Positions 2,872-56,522 are shown, numbered from the stretch's first letter. The stretch: 64,000 nucleotides of DNA from Dehalococcoidia bacterium (GCA_965220225.1 OZ244813.1:1506991-1570990), one strand, 5' to 3'. Notes: generated from the sequence alone by a model not told the origin. A program made the numbers and translations.

Positions 2872-2907
2872 AGAAGCCCCGACATCATGCCGGGGCTTCT
2901 TCATTTC
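2872..2907 (+). terminator. intrinsic terminator after the tRNA pair
   Basis: Stem AGAAGCCCCG (2872-2881) / CGGGGCTTCT (2891-2900), followed by the T-rich TCATTTC. Confidence 0.6.
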
Positions 2908-2988
2908 ACTCCGGTCCGCTGCCGGCCCGCGCTGCTCGAGTTGCGGTTACAATCCGCTCCGCACGCCGACGACCCCCACGGAGGAGCC

Positions 2989-4041
2989 ATGCCAACCGTT
3001 TCCCATGACAGACTGCAGACCATCGCCGACCGCCTGCTCCAGTGTGCTGGAGCAAGCGATGAGGAGGCCGGCGTCATCGCTCGCCACGTCATCGGTGCGA
3101 ACCTTGCGGGACACGACTCCCACGGCATCATCCAGGTGCCGACCTACATAGACCGCATCAAGCGGGGACACATCGTCCCCGGCGCGCCGTTCGACATCGT
3201 CAACGAGACGCCATCGACGCTCGTGGCAGACGGCCATTGGGGGTTCGGGTACGTCGTATCGGAGCGGGCGATGAGTCTGCTCATCGAGAAGGGGAAGCAG
3301 CAGGGCTCCGCCGCCGCGACGGTCTACCGTCAGAGCCACGTGGGTCGGGTCGCCGACTACCCGCTGATGGCCATGCGCGAGGGCATGATAGGCCTGATGA
3401 CCGCCGACTCCGGCAGGACGACCAAGAACGTCGCCCCGTTCGGCGGAAGCGAACCCCGGCTCGGCACGAACCCGATCTGCGTCGCGGTGCCGAGCAACCT
3501 GGAGGGGCCGCTGTTCATAGATATGGCCACGAGCGCGGTCGCCGCAGGAAAGGTGGACCTTGCCGCGGCACGCGGCGTCCCGATCCCGGAGGGGTGGGTC
3601 GTCGACAGCAGCGGCTACCCCGTGACGGACCCGAGAGTCATGCGCGAGCAGGGCGGCGCGCTGCTGCCGCTGGGCGGCTCCGAGGGGTACAAGGGTTACG
3701 GCCTCTCCGTCATCGTGGAGATACTCTCCGGCCTGCTGACAGGCCTCGGTTTCGGGCACGACCCGCGCGGTTTCCACAACGACGGCTGCTTCATGGCCGT
3801 GTTCGACGTCGCCGCGTTCCGCCCGCTGGAGGAGTTCAAGCAGCAGGTTACGGAACTCGCGGGCTACCTGAAGGCGTCCAGGCGCGCGGTGGGGTTCGAC
3901 GAGATTCTCTACCCCGGCGAGATCGAGCACCGGAACACGCAGCGCCGTCTGAATGAGGGCATCTTCGTGGAGGATGCGACGTGGGGCAAACTCGCGGCGC
4001 TCGCGGAGGAGTACAGCGTCAGCGCGGAGCTGGAGCTGTAG
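2989..4041 (+). CDS. Ldh_2 family (malate/L-lactate/sulfolactate-type) NAD(P)H oxidoreductase
   Basis: ATG at 2989 preceded by GGAGGA. Motifs GHDSHGI, GFGYVV, SHVGR, FGGSEPRLGTNP and GYKGYGLS are typical of the family. Confidence 0.8.
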   Translation: MPTVSHDRLQTIADRLLQCAGASDEEAGVIARHVIGANLAGHDSHGIIQVPTYIDRIKRGHIVPGAPFDIVNETPSTLVADGHWGFGYVVSERAMSLLIEKGKQQGSAAATVYRQSHVGRVADYPLMAMREGMIGLMTADSGRTTKNVAPFGGSEPRLGTNPICVAVPSNLEGPLFIDMATSAVAAGKVDLAAARGVPIPEGWVVDSSGYPVTDPRVMREQGGALLPLGGSEGYKGYGLSVIVEILSGLLTGLGFGHDPRGFHNDGCFMAVFDVAAFRPLEEFKQQVTELAGYLKASRRAVGFDEILYPGEIEHRNTQRRLNEGIFVEDATWGKLAALAEEYSVSAELEL

Positions 4042-4834
4042 TGACCGCACGCCCCGGGTGGGCAACCGCACGTTTACCGCGTCGCCTTCGCGAGGTGTAC
4101 CCATTCGATTGCCGTACCCGATGCCTGACCCGGCAACTGGTGTACGCTCGCATGCGCACATTCCTCTGCAGCAGCCGTGTGCGCGCCGTGTAAGCGGTCA
4201 GCTCCTCGTGCCGCCGCGCCCGGATGGTCTCCAACTCGTGGCGGGCCTTCCGCACCTTCCTGACTTCCCGGACGACCGCCCATGCAAGCAGGAGCGGCCC
4301 CACGACGAAGGCGGCTACGCTGACGATGCCCAGGGCGAACCGCAAACTTATGCCGAACACCAGTGAACTGGTGGTTCCGACCGCCGGAGCCGCACCTGGG
4401 AAGAGGGTCAGCAGTTTCGCTCCCACCGGACGTACGAGGTTGAGGATCGTTGCGGACCACACCTTCCAGACGGTGCCGGCGGCAAAGCCGGCTCCCTGGC
4501 GTCCGATGATGCTGGTTCTGGAGTGAGGAGAGCCATCGGCGACGGTGCGCTTCTGACGCCTGAGGAGCCGCCGCCACAGCGGCGGCGGATCAAGGAGCGT
4601 CGCATTCTCCTGGAGGGAGGCCGGGTACTCCGGCTCCGGCAGACCCAGCCGGTGGCAGAGCCCCACCTGTTGCTCGTACAGCGGGAGGATCTCTTCCCGG
4701 TGGTGCGACTCCAGTTCCTGCAGTTCGGCGCGTAGCGCGTTGAGCCGCTCGTGGCTTCTCAGCTTCGCAGCTGCCTGGGCCACGGCTGAGCCGCCGGCGA
4801 TGGCGAGGGGAATCAGCAGAGCGGGTAAGGGCAT
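4019..4834 (-). CDS. hypothetical protein (N-terminal signal/TM, coiled-coil, two TM helices)
   Basis: Only plausible ORF in this interval. It has hydrophobic segments LLIPLAIAGGSAV and GIVSVAAFVVGPLLLAWAVV. The C-terminal Arg-rich tail overlaps the Ldh_2 3' end and may be spurious. Confidence 0.45.
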   Translation of the reverse strand: MPLPALLIPLAIAGGSAVAQAAAKLRSHERLNALRAELQELESHHREEILPLYEQQVGLCHRLGLPEPEYPASLQENATLLDPPPLWRRLLRRQKRTVADGSPHSRTSIIGRQGAGFAAGTVWKVWSATILNLVRPVGAKLLTLFPGAAPAVGTTSSLVFGISLRFALGIVSVAAFVVGPLLLAWAVVREVRKVRKARHELETIRARRHEELTAYTARTRLLQRNVRMRAYTSCRVRHRVRQSNGYTSRRRRGKRAVAHPGRAVTTAPAPR

Positions 4835-4929
4835 GAGTGATCTGTTCGTCTTCGGTATCGTCGAGCGGTTCGTTGGCGTATGTCGACGGTTGTGGACACT
4901 GAGAACATTTTAGCAAGCGCCTCCCGTCG

Positions 4930-4959
4930 TTGACGGACGGGAGCGTTTCTGGCTAATCT
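4930..4959 (+). promoter_or_regulatory. candidate promoter for tRNA-Cys
   Basis: TTGACG (4930-4935), 18 nt spacer, TAATCT (4954-4959), 10 nt before the tRNA. It overlaps hairpin CTCCCGTC/GACGGGAG (4921-4943). Confidence 0.3.
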
Positions 4960-4969
4960 GATACGTCAC

Positions 4970-5045
4970 GGCGACGTAGCCAAGTGGTTAAGGCGGAGGT
5001 CTGCAAAACCTCTATTCGGCGGTTCGATTCCGCCCGTCGCCTCCA
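4970..5045 (+). tRNA. tRNA-Cys (anticodon GCA), CCA encoded
   Basis: Acceptor GGCGACG/CGTCGCC, anticodon stem GAGGT/ACCTC, loop CTGCAAA, T-loop TTCGATT. Confidence 0.9.
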
Positions 5046-5089
5046 ACCTCACTCATCACGGCGTGCAACCTCATCGGGAGGAGCGGCTC

Positions 5090-5647
5090 ATGGAAGAGAT
5101 CGTCAAGAAGGTTCAAACAGGAGAGCCTGTCCCGAACGCTGCACGCCAGGACGGCGTCCGGCGGGAGATCGTCATCGAGGTTGAGGCGGAGACGCTGGAG
5201 CGCCAGCGCAAGCTGGCCCGCGTCCGCTCCGGGGGCGGCACCGGGAGCACGTTCGAGATGATCTGCGACGAGGGGACCCGCATCGGCGGTGATGACACTG
5301 CACCTTCACCGCTCGCCTACTTCTCGGCGGGTGTGGCGTTCTGACTGCTCACTCAACTCGCTCGGTTGAGCGAGATGACGCACATCGCCTACAGCAAGGT
5401 GCGGCTACAGCAGACCACGCGCTTCTACCGCGACGGCTCTGCGCTCGCGGGCACCATCGTTGGGGGGCCGGCCGGTCTCGAAACTACCGTCAACGTGGAG
5501 TCGGATGAGCCGCCCGAGCGCATACGCCGTCTCGTCGACATGGCGGAGTCGAGCTGCTATGCGTTGCAGTCGCTGGTGCAGAACATGGAGGTCACGTCCG
5601 TGTTCACGCTCAACGGCGAGGCGCTGCCGCAGGCCGCGGCCGTCTGA
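5090..5647 (+). CDS. OsmC/Ohr-family peroxiredoxin-like protein with in-frame TGA at 5342-5344 (candidate selenocysteine; alternatively a nonsense pseudogene)
   Basis: ORFs 5063..5344 and 5366..5647 share one frame and are separated only by TGA. The joined sequence is GGDDTAPSPLAYFSAGVAF[TGA]LLTQLARL. The second conserved Cys is retained (AESSCYALQSL). ATG at 5090 is preceded by GGGAGGAG. Confidence 0.6.
5353..5378 (+). promoter_or_regulatory. SECIS-like stem-loop immediately 3' of the in-frame TGA
   Basis: TCA-A-CTCGCTC [GGTT] GAGCGAG-A-TGA. The stem starts 8 nt after the TGA. The G-rich apical loop (5364-5367) starts 19 nt after the TGA. Confidence 0.45.
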
Positions 5648-5725
5648 CGTCCGCGCATACTTCACCCCGCAGTACCCTCACCGCGCGCTGAAGCGTGTTG
5701 CCTTCTCCCTTGTAGGGAGAGGGGG

Positions 5726-6634
5726 TCAGTCCCACCGCTGCAGTAGATTGATCACCACGGTCAGTGTCACGAGGCTGGCGATCGTGCCGATGATGACGCT
5801 GCTCGCCACGAACCGCGGCACCGTGCGGTACTCGGTCGCGAGGATGGAGACGAACACGGCGGCGGGCATCGCAGCGATGAGCACGACCGTGTTGCGGATG
5901 ACGCCTTCGAGCCCCAGGAGTGTCGTCACCCCAGCGCCGACCATCGCCCCTGCTATCAGCCGCGTGGCGAGCACCGTAGTCATGCTGCCCGGCTGCCGGA
6001 ACTCGATGCCCTGCGCCAACTGGTAGCCCAGTACGAGCAGCATACCCGGGATGGCCGCATCCGCCATCATGCTGATGGGCCTGTCGAGCGTCGTGGGGAG
6101 CGTCCAGTCGAACCCGCGTATGAGGAGTGCGATGGGTACGGCGTAGAGTGTTGGCGCCTTGAGGGACTGGAGTAACGGGCCCCACCCCCGCGCCCGCCCA
6201 CGGGCGGCGATGTAGATGCCGACGGGCCAGTTGATGGACGTGTGCGCAACGAACACGATGATGGCCACGGAGAGCCCGTCGTCCCCGAACGCGAGGAACG
6301 AGAGCGGGATGCCCATGTTGCCTGAGTTGCCGAACGCTCCGGCGAGCATGAATCCGCTCTCGGTTGTCCTGTCGAGCCGCAGCAGCCTGGACACCACCCA
6401 GGAGACGGCGACCATCGCGAGCATGGTAACGGCTGCGGCTGCGACGATGCGCAGGGATACGTCCAGCGCCAACTGCGTCCGAAGCAGGCCGTCCAGCACC
6501 AGCGCCGGGCCGAAGATGTAGAGGGCGGCAGGCCCCAGCAGCCCAAGCGAACCGGGGCGAACCCGCTGCAGCACCGCGCCGGAGCCGGCGATGATGAAGA
6601 TCGGCAGAACAACCGTGAGGAAGATGTTGAGCAA
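5726..6634 (-). CDS. AEC (auxin efflux carrier) family transporter
   Basis: About 10 TM helices. The N-terminus MLNIFLTVVLPIFIIAGSG is typical of the family. The start is TTG. Confidence 0.85.
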   Translation of the reverse strand: MLNIFLTVVLPIFIIAGSGAVLQRVRPGSLGLLGPAALYIFGPALVLDGLLRTQLALDVSLRIVAAAAVTMLAMVAVSWVVSRLLRLDRTTESGFMLAGAFGNSGNMGIPLSFLAFGDDGLSVAIIVFVAHTSINWPVGIYIAARGRARGWGPLLQSLKAPTLYAVPIALLIRGFDWTLPTTLDRPISMMADAAIPGMLLVLGYQLAQGIEFRQPGSMTTVLATRLIAGAMVGAGVTTLLGLEGVIRNTVVLIAAMPAAVFVSILATEYRTVPRFVASSVIIGTIASLVTLTVVINLLQRWD

Positions 6635-6721
6635 GGCAGCGCCTGGAGAGGGAGAAGCCCCGGCAGTGTATCTTCCCTGCTCCCTGAGGCCAACAGCAGT
6701 TCAATATCCGCTCTGCAACTT

Positions 6722-6807: not shown

Positions 6808-8001
6808 ATGGACAGTGGTTCGATAGCTTGGTTGCTGACCGCATCGGCCTTGGTGTTGCTCATGACACCGGGGCTTGCCTTCTTCTACGGGGGTCTAGTC
6901 CGCAGCCGCAACGTCATCAGCACCATCATGATGAGCTTCATGAGCATGGCAGTAGTCAGCGTCGTCTGGGTACTGTGGGGTTACAGCATCGCGTTCGGCG
7001 AGGGCAACGCTCTCATGGGAGACCTCTCCCTCATCGGTCTGAAGACCGTCGAACCGGGCGACGACATGCTGTTCGCCGTCTTCCAGATGATGTTCGCCAT
7101 CATCACGCCGGCCCTGATCACGGGAGCGATGGTTGAGCGGTTCAAGTTCACCACCTACCTCGTCTTCCTGGTCGCCTGGGTAACGCTGGTCTACGCGCCC
7201 ATCGCCCACTGGGTATGGGCCGGCAATGGCTGGTTGTTCGACCTCGGCGCGCTCGACTTCGCGGGCGGTACGGTCGTTCACATCAACGCCGCTGTGGCCG
7301 CCGTCGCTGCTGCGCTGCTGGTTGGCAAGCGGCGGGACCCGGGTCTGGAGCCCGGCAACGTTCCGTACGTCGTTATCGGCGCTGCATTGCTCTGGTTCGG
7401 CTGGTTCGGGTTCAACGCGGGCTCCGGCCTCGCGGCAGACGGAGTCGCCATCAACGCATTCCTCGTGACCAACACGGCTGCCGCAACGGCCGCACTCACG
7501 TGGGGCATCCTGTCCCAGATACAGAACAAGCGCATGAGCGCTGCTGGAGTCGCGACGGGCGCCGTCGGCGGTCTCGTCGCCATCACCCCGGCGGCAGGCG
7601 CGGTGGGCGTCATGGGCGCGTTGGCCATCGGCCTGGGCGCGGGTGTGTTCTGCTACCTCGCCGTGCTCATCCGTCCGAAGCTGGGGATCGACGACTCACT
7701 GGACGTGTTCGCGGTCCACGGCATCGGCGGCATCTGGGGCGCTCTGGCGACCGGTATCTTCACGGTGTCGGCATTCGCCGGAGTCGAGGGGCTGATCGAA
7801 GGTAACGTCGAGCAGCTGGGTATCCAGTTCGTTGGCGTCGCCGCCACGATCGTCTACTCCTTCGTCGCATCGCTCATCATCCTGAAGGTGCTCGACCTGA
7901 TCCCGGGTCTCGGCCTGCGCGTCAGCGAGCGTGACGAGGGCACCGGCCTGGACGTGGCCGCTCACGGTGAGCGTGCCTACGTGAGCGACGGGGCCGACTA
8001 A
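6808..8001 (+). CDS. amt: ammonium transporter (Amt family)
   Basis: Amt signatures LVLLMTPGLAFFYGG, DFAGGTVVHINA, LWFGWFGFNAGS and DVFAVHGIGGIWG. RBS GGAAGGAG. Confidence 0.95.
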   Translation: MDSGSIAWLLTASALVLLMTPGLAFFYGGLVRSRNVISTIMMSFMSMAVVSVVWVLWGYSIAFGEGNALMGDLSLIGLKTVEPGDDMLFAVFQMMFAIITPALITGAMVERFKFTTYLVFLVAWVTLVYAPIAHWVWAGNGWLFDLGALDFAGGTVVHINAAVAAVAAALLVGKRRDPGLEPGNVPYVVIGAALLWFGWFGFNAGSGLAADGVAINAFLVTNTAAATAALTWGILSQIQNKRMSAAGVATGAVGGLVAITPAAGAVGVMGALAIGLGAGVFCYLAVLIRPKLGIDDSLDVFAVHGIGGIWGALATGIFTVSAFAGVEGLIEGNVEQLGIQFVGVAATIVYSFVASLIILKVLDLIPGLGLRVSERDEGTGLDVAAHGERAYVSDGAD

Positions 8002-8071
8002 CAAAGAGGAACGGCCTGGGGGTATGCTGAGGCGGCATACCCCCAGGGAACCAGGAGAAGGGATACAAGCC

Positions 8072-8425
8072 ATGATAAGCATAGAAGCGATAGTCCGGCC
8101 GGAGCGGGTCCACCGGGTGACGGAAGCGTTGCAGGACGCGGGGTGCCAGGGCTTCTACTACGTCAACGTGACCGGCGAGGGACGCCAGCGCGGTGTCGAG
8201 GTGTTCGTCGGACGCGGGGGGACGATGGCGAGCCGTGCATCGGTGCCGAAGACGCTCGTGCGCACGGTCGTTACCGACGACATGCAGGAGGCGGTCATCG
8301 CCGCCATCATCGAGGCGGCGCGGACGCCGGACGACGGCGAGATCGGCGACGGCAAGATCTTTGTCTCACCCATCACGGAAGTCGTGCGGGTACGCACGGG
8401 CGAGCGGGGCGAGGTCGCGATCTAG
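8072..8425 (+). CDS. glnK: P-II nitrogen regulatory protein (GlnK-like, atypical T-loop)
   Basis: ATG at 8072 follows GGAGAAGGG. The C-terminal signature is GDGKIFVSPITEVVRVRTGE. It sits directly downstream of amt. Confidence 0.9.
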   Translation: MISIEAIVRPERVHRVTEALQDAGCQGFYYVNVTGEGRQRGVEVFVGRGGTMASRASVPKTLVRTVVTDDMQEAVIAAIIEAARTPDDGEIGDGKIFVSPITEVVRVRTGERGEVAI

Positions 8426-34882: not shown

Positions 34883-36250
34883 ATGACCGACTACACGACC
34901 CACCATTTCGAGGCCGCCTCGCGTTACACCGTCTCCGTCGGCTACGACCGCCGTCTGTACGAGCACGACATCGCGGGGTCGGTCGCGCACGCCCGCATGC
35001 TCGGCAGGCAGGGCATCATCTCCGAAGTCGACGCGGACGCCATCGTGCAGGGGCTCGACGCCGTGCGCGGCGAGATAGCCGACGGCGCGTTCAACTGGCG
35101 CGATGAGCTCGAAGACCTCCACATGAACATCGAGACGCGCCTCCACGAGCTCATCGGCGAGCCCGCCGCGCGCCTCCACACCGCGCGCTCCCGCAACGAC
35201 CAGGTCGCGACTGCCACCCGCCTCTACGTTCGCGACGCCATCGACCGCGCGGCGTCGCTGCTCCGTGCCCTTCAGACCGTCCTGCTGGCGCTCGCCGAGC
35301 GCGAGCAGGACGCCCTCCTCCCCGGCTACACCCACCTCCAGCGCGCCCAGCCCGTGCCGTTCGCCCACCACATGCTCGCCTACTTCGAGATGTTCGACCG
35401 CGACGCCGACCGCCTCGCCGACGCCCGGAGACGCGTGAACGTCCTCCCGCTCGGCTCCGGCGCGCTCGCAGGCGCGCCGTACCCGCTCGACCGCGAGTCG
35501 GTCGCCCGCGAACTCGGCTTCGACGGCATCTCCGCCAACTCGATGGACGCCGTCTCTGACCGCGACTACGCCGTCGAGTTCCTCGCCGCTGCCGCGACGT
35601 GCATGATGCACTGCTCTCGCCTCGCGGAGGAGATCGTGCTCTGGACGTCGCAGGAGTTCGGCTATCTGCAGCTCGGACGGCAGTGGGTCACCGGCTCGTC
35701 CATCATGCCGCAGAAGCGCAACCCGGACTTCGCGGAGATCGCGCGCGGCAAGACGGGCCGCGTCTACGGCAGCCTCGTCGGCCTGCTCACCACGCTCAAA
35801 GGCCTGCCGCTCACCTACAACCGCGACCTGCAGGAGGACAAGGAAGGGTTGTTCGATGCTGTCGACACCCTCGAAGCGACGCTCGAAGCCATGCGCGGCA
35901 TGCTGAGCGACTGCTCCGTGAACGCCGAGCGGATGCGCGATGCCGCCGAGGACAGCGCCCTGCTCGCAACCGACATGGCCGATTACCTCGTCGGCAAGGG
36001 AGTACCGTTCCGCGAGGCGCACGCCGCCGTGAGCGCGCTCTGCGAGCTTGCCGCTGAGCGCGGCGTCGCCGTGACTGCGCTGCCGCTCGACGAGATGCGC
36101 GCGCAGTGCCCCGTCTTCGACGAGGGCGTGCGCGAACTCACCGCGCTTGCCAGCGCGACGGCGCGCGACGTGCCCGGCGGCGCGTCGCCCGCCCGCGTGC
36201 GGGAAGCACTCGCTGCAGCGAAGGCGCGGCTGGAGGCGTCCGGTGGCTGA
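34883..36250 (+). CDS. argH: argininosuccinate lyase
   Basis: Fumarate-lyase signature [21 protein letters not shown] and YTHLQRAQP motifs. Confidence 0.95.
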
Positions 36251-45832: not shown

Positions 45833-46696
45833 CTAGCCCGCCGTCACCGCCGCCTTGACCCCCAGCCACTCCGGCACGACGCGGAAGAGGTCGTCCTCCT
45901 TGTTGTGCCAGCCGTGGTCGCCGCCCTCCAGGTGCACCCACGTCACGTTCTCCCGACCCTCGCACAGCGCGGCCATGTCGCGGCCGGCGTCGCGCATGCG
46001 GGGGTGGGTCTCCTCGGTGCCCGTGAGGATGAGCAGCGGGCACTCGATCTCGTTCGTGTGCGCCTTCGTGATGTCGTAGTGCTCGGAGCAGTGGCGGTCC
46101 AGGTAGACGTCGGCGGAGAAGTACGCGCCGGGGTTGGGGAAGTCCACGAACATGATCTCGTGGCCGCGTCCATCGGCGACCAGCGCCTTCGCGTTCTCGT
46201 AGTTCCGCAGGTGCTCCTCTCCCATCTCGCATGCCGAGTAGTACTCGTGGGAGAAGCGCAGCGGCGCGAGCGAGATCACTCCGGCGACGTTGGGGTCCTG
46301 GTTCTTCGCCTGTGCGAGCACGACGCGCACCGCGCCGAGGCTGCTGCCCCAGATGCCGACGCGCTCGTAGCCGCGCTCCACCATGAACGCCACCGTCGCC
46401 TGCAGGTCCAGATGGGTCTCGGAGAGCATCTCGTAGACGTTGCCGGTGCGCACCTTGCCTGCTCGTCCGCCGACCACGTCGTGGCCTCGCGTGTTGAAGA
46501 GCGCGGTCGGGATGCCCATGTCGCGCAGCTTCGCGGCGCGCGGGTTGGAGGGCGACAGGTAGAAGTTGCCGGCGGAGCCGTGCACCATCACCATCGCGTC
46601 CACCAGCAGGTCCGTCCGGGGCTGCTCCGGCTCCAGCACGATGCCGCTCAGGGTAACGCCGTCGCTCGTCTTGGTGTGTACCAGGTCAACCAGCAT
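45833..46696 (-). CDS. alpha/beta hydrolase
   Basis: Nucleophile elbow GIWGSSLG. HG oxyanion motif VMVHGSAGN. C-terminal GGDHGW. ATG at 46696 follows GGAGG; a longer ORF runs to 46741. Confidence 0.75.
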   Translation of the reverse strand: MLVDLVHTKTSDGVTLSGIVLEPEQPRTDLLVDAMVMVHGSAGNFYLSPSNPRAAKLRDMGIPTALFNTRGHDVVGGRAGKVRTGNVYEMLSETHLDLQATVAFMVERGYERVGIWGSSLGAVRVVLAQAKNQDPNVAGVISLAPLRFSHEYYSACEMGEEHLRNYENAKALVADGRGHEIMFVDFPNPGAYFSADVYLDRHCSEHYDITKAHTNEIECPLLILTGTEETHPRMRDAGRDMAALCEGRENVTWVHLEGGDHGWHNKEDDLFRVVPEWLGVKAAVTAG

Positions 46697-46759
46697 CGTC
46701 GCGCCTCCGGGGTCAGTCTGGTGCCGGTAGTATATGCGCACGCGCGCTTGCCGGGTGTG

Positions 46760-48154
46760 TCAGTCCTCGTCGAGCGGCTCCGGCATCAGCACGAACTCCG
46801 GGTACGCCTCGATGCCCAGCTCGCCGACGTCCTGCCCCAGCCGCTCGATGTTGGAGGAAACCCGCGCGCCCAGCGTTGCCTTGAACGCCTGCCATAGCAG
46901 CCAGGAGACGGGAAAGACGAACGCGCCGACCGCCAGCACGCCGATCAACTGCACGTGGAACTGCGCCCCCGCTGCGATGGAAGCGGCAAGCGTCCCCCAG
47001 ATGCCCGCGAACAGGTGGGCGGGCACCGCGCCCACGACGTCGTCCAGTTTCACCGTCTCCAGCAGTTTCAGCCCCGCAACGACGATCACTCCGCCGATCG
47101 CCCCGATGATGATTGCCCAGTAGTGATCGACGATATCGGGTCCGGCGGTGATGGAGACGAGGCCGGCGATGGCGCCGTTCAGCGCGGCGAAGAGGTCTAT
47201 GCGCCCGAGTATCCAGCGCGAGACCAGTATGGCCGTGATGACGCCTGCGGCAGCCGCCAGGTTCGTGTTCACGATCACGATGCTCATCGCCACCGCGTCC
47301 ACGGCGCTCGCCAGCGCGAGTTGAGAACCTCCGTTGAAACCGAACCAGCCGAGCCAGAGGATGAACACCCCCAGCGTCACCGCGATGGTGTTGGACGGCG
47401 GCGTCGGCCTGGCCTTGCCGTCGCGCCCGAACTTGCCGAGCCTCGGCCCCACGACGAGGATGCCCGCCAGTGCAGCCCAGCCGCCGGTGCTGTGCACGAT
47501 GGTCGAGCCCGCGAAGTCCTGGAATCCCATCTCAGTGAGCCAGCCGCCGCCCCACGTCCACGCGCCGACGATGGGGTAGATGAACCCCGTCAGCAGGAGC
47601 GTGAAGAGGAAGAACGACCACATCTTGACCCGCTCTGCCAGCGCGCCGGACACGATGGAGGCAGCGGTCGCCACGAACACCATCTGGAAGAACCAGTCCG
47701 ACATCACCGAGTAGCTGCTCTCCTCGACAACCGCCGCCGCGTCGCCTTCTCCGGCGAGCAACGCCACCTCGCTGGCCGACGGTCCGTAGAGCAGGTTGAA
47801 CGAGCCGATGAAGCCTCCCACGATATCGACGTACATGAGGTTGTAGCCGACGAAGAAATAGGCCAGCCCCGCGATGGAGTAGAGGCCGATGTTCTTCATG
47901 CAGATCATGGAGGCGTTCTTGGTGCGGACGGAACCGGCCTCCAGCATCGTGAACCCGGCGGCCATCCACATCACCAGAGCGCCCCAGACGAGGAACGCGA
48001 ACGTGTTGAGGACGAATGCGGTCTCCGAAGTGACGTCGGCGGCATGCGCGACGGCAGGCTGGGCCACGAAGAGCACCAGCGCGAGTATGCCGGACACGGC
48101 AAGGACGATGGGGGGACGGCGGTAGGACAGGATGCGCAGGACGGTCATCGGCAC
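46760..48154 (-). CDS. amt: ammonium transporter (Amt family) with N-terminal signal-like extension
   Basis: FTMLEAGSVR, DFAGSTIVHSTGG, LWLGWFGFNGGS and VVGAVPAHLFAGIWG motifs. The signal-like segment is LALVLFVAQPAVAHA|A. Confidence 0.9.
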   Translation of the reverse strand: MPMTVLRILSYRRPPIVLAVSGILALVLFVAQPAVAHAADVTSETAFVLNTFAFLVWGALVMWMAAGFTMLEAGSVRTKNASMICMKNIGLYSIAGLAYFFVGYNLMYVDIVGGFIGSFNLLYGPSASEVALLAGEGDAAAVVEESSYSVMSDWFFQMVFVATAASIVSGALAERVKMWSFFLFTLLLTGFIYPIVGAWTWGGGWLTEMGFQDFAGSTIVHSTGGWAALAGILVVGPRLGKFGRDGKARPTPPSNTIAVTLGVFILWLGWFGFNGGSQLALASAVDAVAMSIVIVNTNLAAAAGVITAILVSRWILGRIDLFAALNGAIAGLVSITAGPDIVDHYWAIIIGAIGGVIVVAGLKLLETVKLDDVVGAVPAHLFAGIWGTLAASIAAGAQFHVQLIGVLAVGAFVFPVSWLLWQAFKATLGARVSSNIERLGQDVGELGIEAYPEFVLMPEPLDED

Positions 48155-56221: not shown

Positions 56222-56298
56222 GGGCGGTTAGCTCAGTTGGTTAGAGCGCTTGCTTCACACGCAAGAGGTCACAGGTTCAAGTCCTGTATCGCCCACCA
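56222..56298 (+). tRNA. tRNA-Val (anticodon CAC), CCA encoded
   Basis: Acceptor GGGCGGT/ATCGCCC, anticodon stem CTTGC/GCAAG, loop TTCACAC, T-loop TTCAAGT. Confidence 0.9.
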
Positions 56299-56310
56299 CT
56301 GTGTGGACGT

Positions 56311-56396
56311 GCCGAGGTGGCGGAACGGCAGACGCGCTGTGTTCAGGGCGCAGTGTCCTTACGGGCGTGCGAGTTCAAATCTCGCCCTCGGCACCA
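56311..56396 (+). tRNA. tRNA-Leu (anticodon CAG), class II, CCA encoded
   Basis: Acceptor GCCGAGG/CCTCGGC, anticodon stem CTGTG/CGCAG, loop TTCAGGG, long variable arm. Confidence 0.9.
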
Positions 56397-56444
56397 CTAC
56401 GAATATGACGCCTCCGGCCCCGCAACCGGCGGCACCTTGAGAGT

Positions 56445-56522
56445 GCGCTAGTAGCTCAGTCAGGATAGAGCGCATCCCTGCGGAGGATGAGGCCGTGGGT
56501 TCGAGTCCCGCCTAGCGCGCCA
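56445..56522 (+). tRNA. tRNA-Arg (anticodon GCG), CCA encoded
   Basis: Acceptor GCGCTAG/CTAGCGC, D-loop with GGATA (A20), perfect anticodon stem CATCC/GGATG, loop CTGCGGA, T-loop TTCGAGT. Confidence 0.85.

Follow-up and report, generated by a model that had tools for sequence, protein, structure and literature searches.

An OsmC-related gene with a predicted selenocysteine codon and SECIS hairpin in a SAR202-type Dehalococcoidia genome

An OsmC-like protein was among the 15 selenoprotein families introduced in 2005 by Zhang, Fomenko, and Gladyshev, who described it from three Sargasso Sea sequences assigned to COG1765, with a UxxT motif (their Table 3) and a SECIS element (their Figure 3) (PMC1088965). 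The family is listed unchanged in reviews from 2022 and 2026 (PMC9312934, PMC13188914), the more recent of which also gives UxxT, and selenoprotein use by Chloroflexi has been on record since 2006 (PMC1794560). Two further systems offer points of comparison. The OsmC/Ohr thiol peroxidases, among them E. coli OsmC and the Ohr proteins of Xylella, Pseudomonas, and Chromobacterium, provide the fold and the two catalytic positions, and SECIS elements of the E. coli fdhF type provide the precedent for a short stem that follows the UGA immediately within the coding sequence and is capped by a small loop carrying G then U.

The DNA examined here is a stretch of 64,000 nucleotides (one strand) from a Dehalococcoidia bacterium (GCA_965220225.1 OZ244813.1:1506991-1570990), which we refer to as the window. 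An initial annotation, made from this sequence alone, had put forward one of its genes as a candidate selenoprotein of the OsmC family. Our analysis supports that interpretation, and each of the refuting checks named with it that we ran pointed to selenocysteine; we assign a probability of roughly 0.93 to the reading that the UGA at 5342-5344 is a true selenocysteine (Sec) codon accompanied by its SECIS. The gene is a member of a known, curated selenoprotein family and has been of a known kind since 2005, because the prediction of the family, together with its UxxT motif and SECIS, dates from then and an NCBIfam model (NF041052) has since been curated. The likeness includes the domain, a U at the column of the first redox Cys within UxxT, a SECIS-like hairpin directly downstream with a G in its loop, and a marine or environmental origin. 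Nothing essential differs; the copy in the window comes from a SAR202-type Dehalococcoidia and is extended at its N terminus by about 28 residues. The initial annotation had also stated that OsmC-like proteins were among the predicted marine selenoproteins, and the published record agrees (PMC1088965, Tables 1-3 and Figure 3; PMC13188914; NF041052). The features on which the following analysis draws are these.

4970-5045: tRNA-Cys(GCA) gene, 44 nt upstream of the ATG at 5090
5077-5081, plus strand: Shine-Dalgarno-like GGAGG, 8 nt 5' of the ATG at 5090, read from the sequence
5090-5647, plus strand: predicted OsmC-related selenoprotein coding sequence, 185 codons, U at residue 85, true stop TGA at 5645-5647
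5342-5344, plus strand: in-frame TGA, predicted Sec codon U85 and first residue of UxxT (U-L-L-T), assigned from the homolog column and the published motif
5353-5378, plus strand: extended hairpin TCA-A-core-A-TGA of the minimum free energy (MFE) structure, lower pairs 5353-5355 with 5376-5378
5357-5374, plus strand: conserved core of the candidate SECIS within the coding sequence, stem CTCGCTC (5357-5363) with GAGCGAG (5368-5374), loop GGTT (5364-5367)
5555-5557, plus strand: TGC codon of Cys156, the second (resolving-type) cysteine, invariant in our alignment A1 and matching the second Cys of Ohr and of 3cje

The gene appears at first as two ORFs of 93 aa (5063..5344 and 5366..5647), and the coordinates, common frame, and separating TGA originally described for them check out. 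The TGA at 5342-5344 and 21 nt account for the whole gap between them, and reading through from 5063 to 5647 encounters this TGA as the only internal stop. The joined ORF therefore stands as first proposed, with one revision: its start is likely ATG 5090 rather than GTG 5063, because GGAGG lies 8 nt upstream of the former and because an independent homolog (L001, considered further below) begins with the identical residues MEEIVKKV. A scan of 4700-5900 returned no sigma-70 promoter or intrinsic terminator, though such a scan is uninformative for this phylum, and tblastn found no second OsmC-like paralog within the 64-kb window.

The joined product is a full-length OsmC/Ohr-type protein, as had been claimed for it. 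With Cys substituted at residue 85, it matches the Pfam OsmC domain PF02566 at 3e-12 (47.3 bits versus a gathering threshold of 27.5; profile positions 1-98 of 100). A more specific match is obtained with NCBIfam NF041052.1 (OsmC_like_Se, "OsmC-related (seleno)protein"), which scores 166.2 bits against a cutoff of 95 (E = 4.2e-49) and spans model positions 2-144 of 144; the N-terminal extension falls outside this model. The UxxT redox motif of the family takes the form U-L-L-T in the window protein. We place the protein in the COG1765/YhfA branch of the OsmC/Ohr superfamily.

Profile alignment bears out the initial placement of the TGA exactly at the first conserved redox Cys. Homologs have Cys at this column, and in Vibrio cholerae Ohr (3eer) it aligns with the Cys of "GYAAC"; Cys156 (TGC 5555-5557), the second Cys said to be retained, aligns with the Cys of "VCPYS" in the same protein. 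These two residues of 3eer are the catalytic cysteines of Ohr, and we take the first, the U85 column, to be the peroxidatic one, in keeping with established knowledge of Ohr and OsmC. The nearest solved structure in a family profile search is the OsmC-like protein 3cje (4.5e-17), which has Cys at both positions. An AlphaFold2 model of the window protein (mean pLDDT 77, pTM 0.76) was compared with the PDB using Foldseek; the top 45 matches are all of OsmC/Ohr type, with 3cje the best (E = 2.4e-8, TM 0.64/0.78). The model thus suggests an OsmC/Ohr alpha-beta fold, and our confidence in this fold is moderate because the underlying alignment is shallow (7 sequences). Relative to the characterized OsmC/Ohr peroxidases, the window protein shares the fold and both catalytic positions. 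It differs in showing only 12-22% identity to them, in the predicted replacement of the peroxidatic Cys by Sec, and in belonging to an uncharacterized COG1765-type branch whose nearest structure, 3cje, is a structural-genomics entry.

We compared the site across proteins and genomes. A word-indexed search of 5.8 billion proteins yielded only six relatives, four with Cys at the TGA column and two JGI entries (P0001 and P0003, from contigs of about 1 kb) deposited with W at that position. The paucity of full-length relatives on record is explained by the breakage of the gene at TGA by gene callers. L001, an independent, 48% identical homolog, has TGA in the same column; its DNA reads TGA at 529-531 where the P0001 protein has W. 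Judged by this DNA, the JGI proteins carry the wrong active-site residue, the product of a code-4-type call. We also scanned one genome per GTDB species for a peptide pattern located upstream of the site, a design that therefore introduces no bias toward TGA or Cys forms. This returned 71 loci, 69 of which, together with the window, gave 70 informative sites: 53 of the 70 have TGA (52 when the window is left out) and 17 have TGC or TGT. The alignment check proposed by the initial annotation thus reveals Cys/Sec pairs at the TGA column, and the Sec form accounts for about three quarters of the sampled species-level representatives of the family.

TGA forms span at least eight phylum-level groups. 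They occur in Dehalococcoidia/SAR202 and other Chloroflexota, Thermomicrobiales, Acidobacteriota, Binatia, Actinomycetota (Acidimicrobiales, Microthrix, and Rubrobacteraceae), Pseudomonadota, Myxococcota, and a Spirochaetaceae MAG, a distribution to be set against the three sequences of the published 2005 set. Cys forms are found chiefly in Pirellulaceae and Pseudomonadales. The nearest relatives of the window gene, at 92-97% amino acid identity, belong to Dehalococcoidia/SAR202 MAGs, several of them closed chromosomes, and on this basis we assign the window to a SAR202-type Chloroflexota genome. Two loci from the scan are unusual in other respects. In a Pirellulaceae MAG, L064 (at about 7906) matches residues 24-86 only, with similarity stopping at the Cys/Sec column (GCA); this copy looks truncated or rearranged. 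The Chloroflexota MAG JAQCEV01 (casp40-mb.130) encodes two divergent OsmC-Sec paralogs, L023 and L038. The L038 copy is preceded by a tRNA cluster in the order Val(cac)-Leu(cag)-Arg(gcg); the same order recurs at 56222-56522 of the window, where there is no second OsmC-Sec paralog.

Could the organism simply read TGA as a sense codon, as in a genome-wide reassignment to Trp or Gly of the code 4 or code 25 type? The deposited W residues of P0001 and P0003 would fit such a reassignment, but the W corresponding to L001 is TGA in DNA, and homologs that lack TGA invariably have Cys at this column, never Trp or Gly. Stop usage in the window also argues against reassignment. TGA terminates 15 of 46 coding-like ORFs, including the selenoprotein gene itself (5645-5647), an Amt gene (46760-46762), and an ORF ending at 36250. 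The initial annotation had cited normal termination of neighboring genes at TGA, and both of its examples, the ORF at 34883-36250 and one with a NUDIX motif that stops at 932, are real. Across the family, the true stop is TGA in 21 of the 53 TGA-form genes, that of the window among them. We consider the chance that TGA is globally reassigned here to be minimal.

A crude screen of 140 TGA-joined, same-frame ORF pairs in the window produced no further selenoprotein candidate. In the best such pair, at 46762 on the minus strand, a hydrolase gene comes after an Amt gene that ends normally at TGA; the remaining pairs are neighboring genes or antisense noise. The Amt gene concerned is the second of two in the window (6808-8001, plus strand; 46763-48154, minus strand), and the alpha/beta-hydrolase gene that follows it (45836-46759, minus strand) lies in the same frame, an arrangement that mimics a TGA-interrupted ORF.

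An internal TGA might instead mark a pseudogene, a dead or decaying gene in which a TGC or TGT Cys codon has mutated. One base substitution would be enough, standard gene callers give two ORFs, and one relative, L059 from a Rubrobacteraceae MAG (6547-6715), loses its frame 54 codons past the TGA through an apparent frameshift, which could reflect either real decay or an assembly error. L059 is, however, the sole such case: 52 of 53 TGA loci have an uninterrupted frame of 94-107 codons after the TGA, and the TGA column is identical in 53 sequences drawn from many phyla. Purifying selection on the two halves of the gene points the same way. Measured against SAR202-clade relatives, dN/dS is 0.04-0.22 over the 100 codons that follow the TGA, indistinguishable from its value over the 84 codons that precede it. 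Decay of orthologous loci, which the initial annotation had named as grounds for abandoning its proposal, is thus not what we observe, and with a covarying hairpin kept in TGA forms only (described below), a pseudogene is extremely unlikely.

The window probably derives from a metagenome-assembled genome, so a sequencing or assembly error at 5342-5344, with TGC or TGT as the true codon, also merits consideration. More than 20 independently assembled SAR202-clade genomes share both the TGA and the hairpin, among them the closed long-read chromosomes OZ242210.1 and OZ242348.1. Because the nearest relatives carry the TGA, several of them on closed chromosomes, it cannot be an assembly error, and we give such an error practically no weight.

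The hairpin that follows the TGA provides evidence of a different kind. Its coordinates, its start 8 nt past the TGA, and the 19-nt distance to its loop are correct as initially reported, by direct count; the 7-bp core stem begins 12 nt past the TGA. The bSECISearch model accepts distances of 16-37 nt between UGA and loop. Conservation divides the structure in two. The core (5357-5374) is retained among relatives, whereas the 3-bp lower extension is not: its three pairs, formed across an A-A mismatch, are specific to the window and L005, and most relatives read ACC CAA/CAG at the lower-stem site and can form at most two lower pairs.

Taken by itself, the window hairpin does not stand out from dinucleotide shuffles of this 67% GC DNA (z = -0.97; 33 of 200 shuffles fold as well). 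When the same 15 codons are synonymously recoded to retain the window peptide, none of 200 recodings folds as well. Since the shuffle test on a single sequence is not significant, the significance of the hairpin rests on the recoding test and on the other loci, where TGA and Cys forms differ markedly. Over the 45 nt after the codon, mean MFE is -13.6 kcal/mol for TGA forms versus -7.5 kcal/mol for Cys forms (Mann-Whitney p = 8e-8). Synonymous recodings with an equally good or better fold make up a median fraction of 0.01 in TGA forms versus 0.26 in Cys forms. TGA forms keep a hairpin of 6-7 bp about 12 nt past the TGA, which Cys forms lack.

The frame fixes the 5' arm of the stem at nucleotides 16-22 (numbered from the T of TGA), which allows pairing to be counted directly, anchored to the frame; a covariance-model alignment (A3), with Cys loci and reverse-strand hits mixed in, was left out of these counts. 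The 43 unique TGA sequences contain 18 distinct stems with a mean of 6.5 of 7 positions paired, against 4.3 of 7 for Cys forms even when the best register is chosen for each. Five of the seven pairs show two-sided changes among CG, TA, and GC. On average, the 18 stems pair better with their own 3' arms than with foreign ones (6.3 of 7 versus 4.7 of 7), a difference that none of 20,000 permutations reaches. A G is present among the first two loop bases in all 18 stem types, usually as GGU.

Bacterial SECIS elements are specific to individual genes, and Rfam represents them poorly. For this reason, little weight attaches to the results obtained with Rfam 15, which gave no SECIS match for 5300-5440 at E <= 10, only spurious miRNA-hairpin matches, and which at the gathering threshold detected tRNAs and no SECIS model across the whole window. 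The core at 5357-5374 is a stem-loop immediately 3' of the UGA with a G in its small apical loop, the published description of a bacterial SECIS (PMC1088965). Like the fdhF-type element, the window hairpin is embedded in the coding sequence just after the UGA, has a short stem and a small loop with G then U, and retains its structure while its sequence varies. It differs in having no sequence similarity to the fdhF SECIS and no evident conserved bulged U, and binding by SelB is at this point a prediction. Together, the evidence from the column, the hairpin, selection, and stop usage leads us to exclude the pseudogene, the sequencing error, and the reassignment.

A further reading accepts the TGA and the hairpin as genuine features and assigns them another role: the UGA would mostly or only terminate, yielding a functional N-terminal peptide of 84 residues, or two separate polypeptides if translation restarts at TTG 5366 or ATG 5375, and the hairpin would serve in mRNA stability, pausing, or re-initiation. 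At bacterial UGA-Sec codons, Sec insertion is expected to face competition from termination, and start-type codons do occur shortly past the TGA in the SAR202 clade. Beyond that clade, however, the ATG or TTG is not conserved (the corresponding residues read RYGKI, RVGEA, or RSSEA), while the TGA and hairpin are. The OsmC domain is incomplete in each half, the matches to Pfam and NF041052 extend across the TGA, and the Cys homologs are single continuous proteins. We therefore regard obligate or predominant termination as very unlikely and favor Sec insertion.

Expression of the gene would most probably proceed as follows. During translation, the UGA at 5342-5344 would be recoded to selenocysteine, with the hairpin at 5357-5374 (loop GGUU) recruiting SelB-GTP-Sec-tRNA(Sec) to the ribosome and Sec insertion at UGA-85 competing with release factor 2. 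Translation would then run on to the UGA at 5645-5647, a true stop that no SECIS follows. SelB binding and selenium incorporation at UGA-85 are what we infer from the conserved column and hairpin. The product would have Sec85 at the peroxidatic Cys position and Cys156 at the resolving position; most likely, peroxide or a similar oxidant would oxidize Sec85 to a selenenic acid, which would be resolved as a Sec85-Cys156 selenenylsulfide and re-reduced by a thiol system. We found no member of the COG1765-type branch with a demonstrated enzymatic activity, and the peroxidase mechanism is for that reason an extrapolation from OsmC and Ohr; by analogy with those enzymes, the window protein may serve as a selenol peroxidase or redox protein acting on a substrate of this class.

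Sec insertion would require dedicated machinery, and we searched for its genes in the available sequence. In the 64-kb window, ARAGORN, Rfam, and tblastn with E. coli probes detected no tRNA-Sec, selA, selB, or selD. ARAGORN and tblastn over the window plus about 1.2 Mb of 20-kb loci detected selA only, at three of them (L021, 7547-8929, minus strand; L075, 10001-11386; L076, 10001-11365), and no tRNA-Sec, selB, or selD. The first of these, L021, is on a closed Dehalococcoidia chromosome, and its selA is an intact equivalog (TIGR00474, 508 bits versus 268) located 1.1 kb upstream of the OsmC-Sec gene, in a layout that resembles the window, with a tRNA-Cys, the OsmC-Sec gene, and an Amt gene further downstream. 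Used as a query, the L021 SelA identified a close homolog in the L019 chromosome and another on CBDEVR010000002.1, about 145 kb from L010, a 95%-identical ortholog of the window gene. The occurrence of selA in these close relatives counts in favor of selenocysteine. Because no selB, selD, or tRNA-Sec adjoins selA in L021, L075, or L076, the sel genes appear to be dispersed in this clade. A tRNA-Leu(taa) gene adjoins selA in both L021 (9023-9107) and L075 (9883-9968).

The scientific addition made by this gene is small. It is of practical use for annotation, where ordinary gene callers divide it into two 93-aa ORFs or, on short contigs, put Trp at the TGA. The 53 Sec forms and 18 covarying stems are well suited as seeds for a SECIS model specific to the family. 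The data further mark SAR202-type Dehalococcoidia, among them MAGs reported from sponges, as Sec decoders. The Sec form, which predominates in the family, may also be conserved across SAR202 lineages of marine and sponge-associated origin; SAR202 would then be a selenium user not remarked upon before.

The surroundings of the gene have a conserved element of their own. The tRNA-Cys gene is adjacent to the selenoprotein gene in all 20 SAR202-clade loci (L002-L021), at about 45-150 nt upstream and with OsmC identity as low as 71%, and the adjacency does not extend beyond this clade. It is probably plain synteny. The position of a tRNA-Cys beside a gene whose key Cys became Sec nonetheless raises the question of co-transcription. 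A functional adjacency, in which the tRNA and the selenoprotein mRNA form one transcript, strikes us as unlikely; were it the case, expression of the Sec gene might be tied to tRNA-Cys processing, or local tRNA-Cys might be raised for near-cognate Cys insertion at the UGA when selenium is scarce. On the far side of the tRNA-Cys, between it and an Ldh_2-family gene (2887-4041), is a coding-like ORF of 271 aa (4019-4834, minus strand) with no Pfam match. Downstream of the selenoprotein gene, the first of the two Amt genes (6808-8001) is followed by a 133-aa ORF at 8024-8425 on the plus strand.
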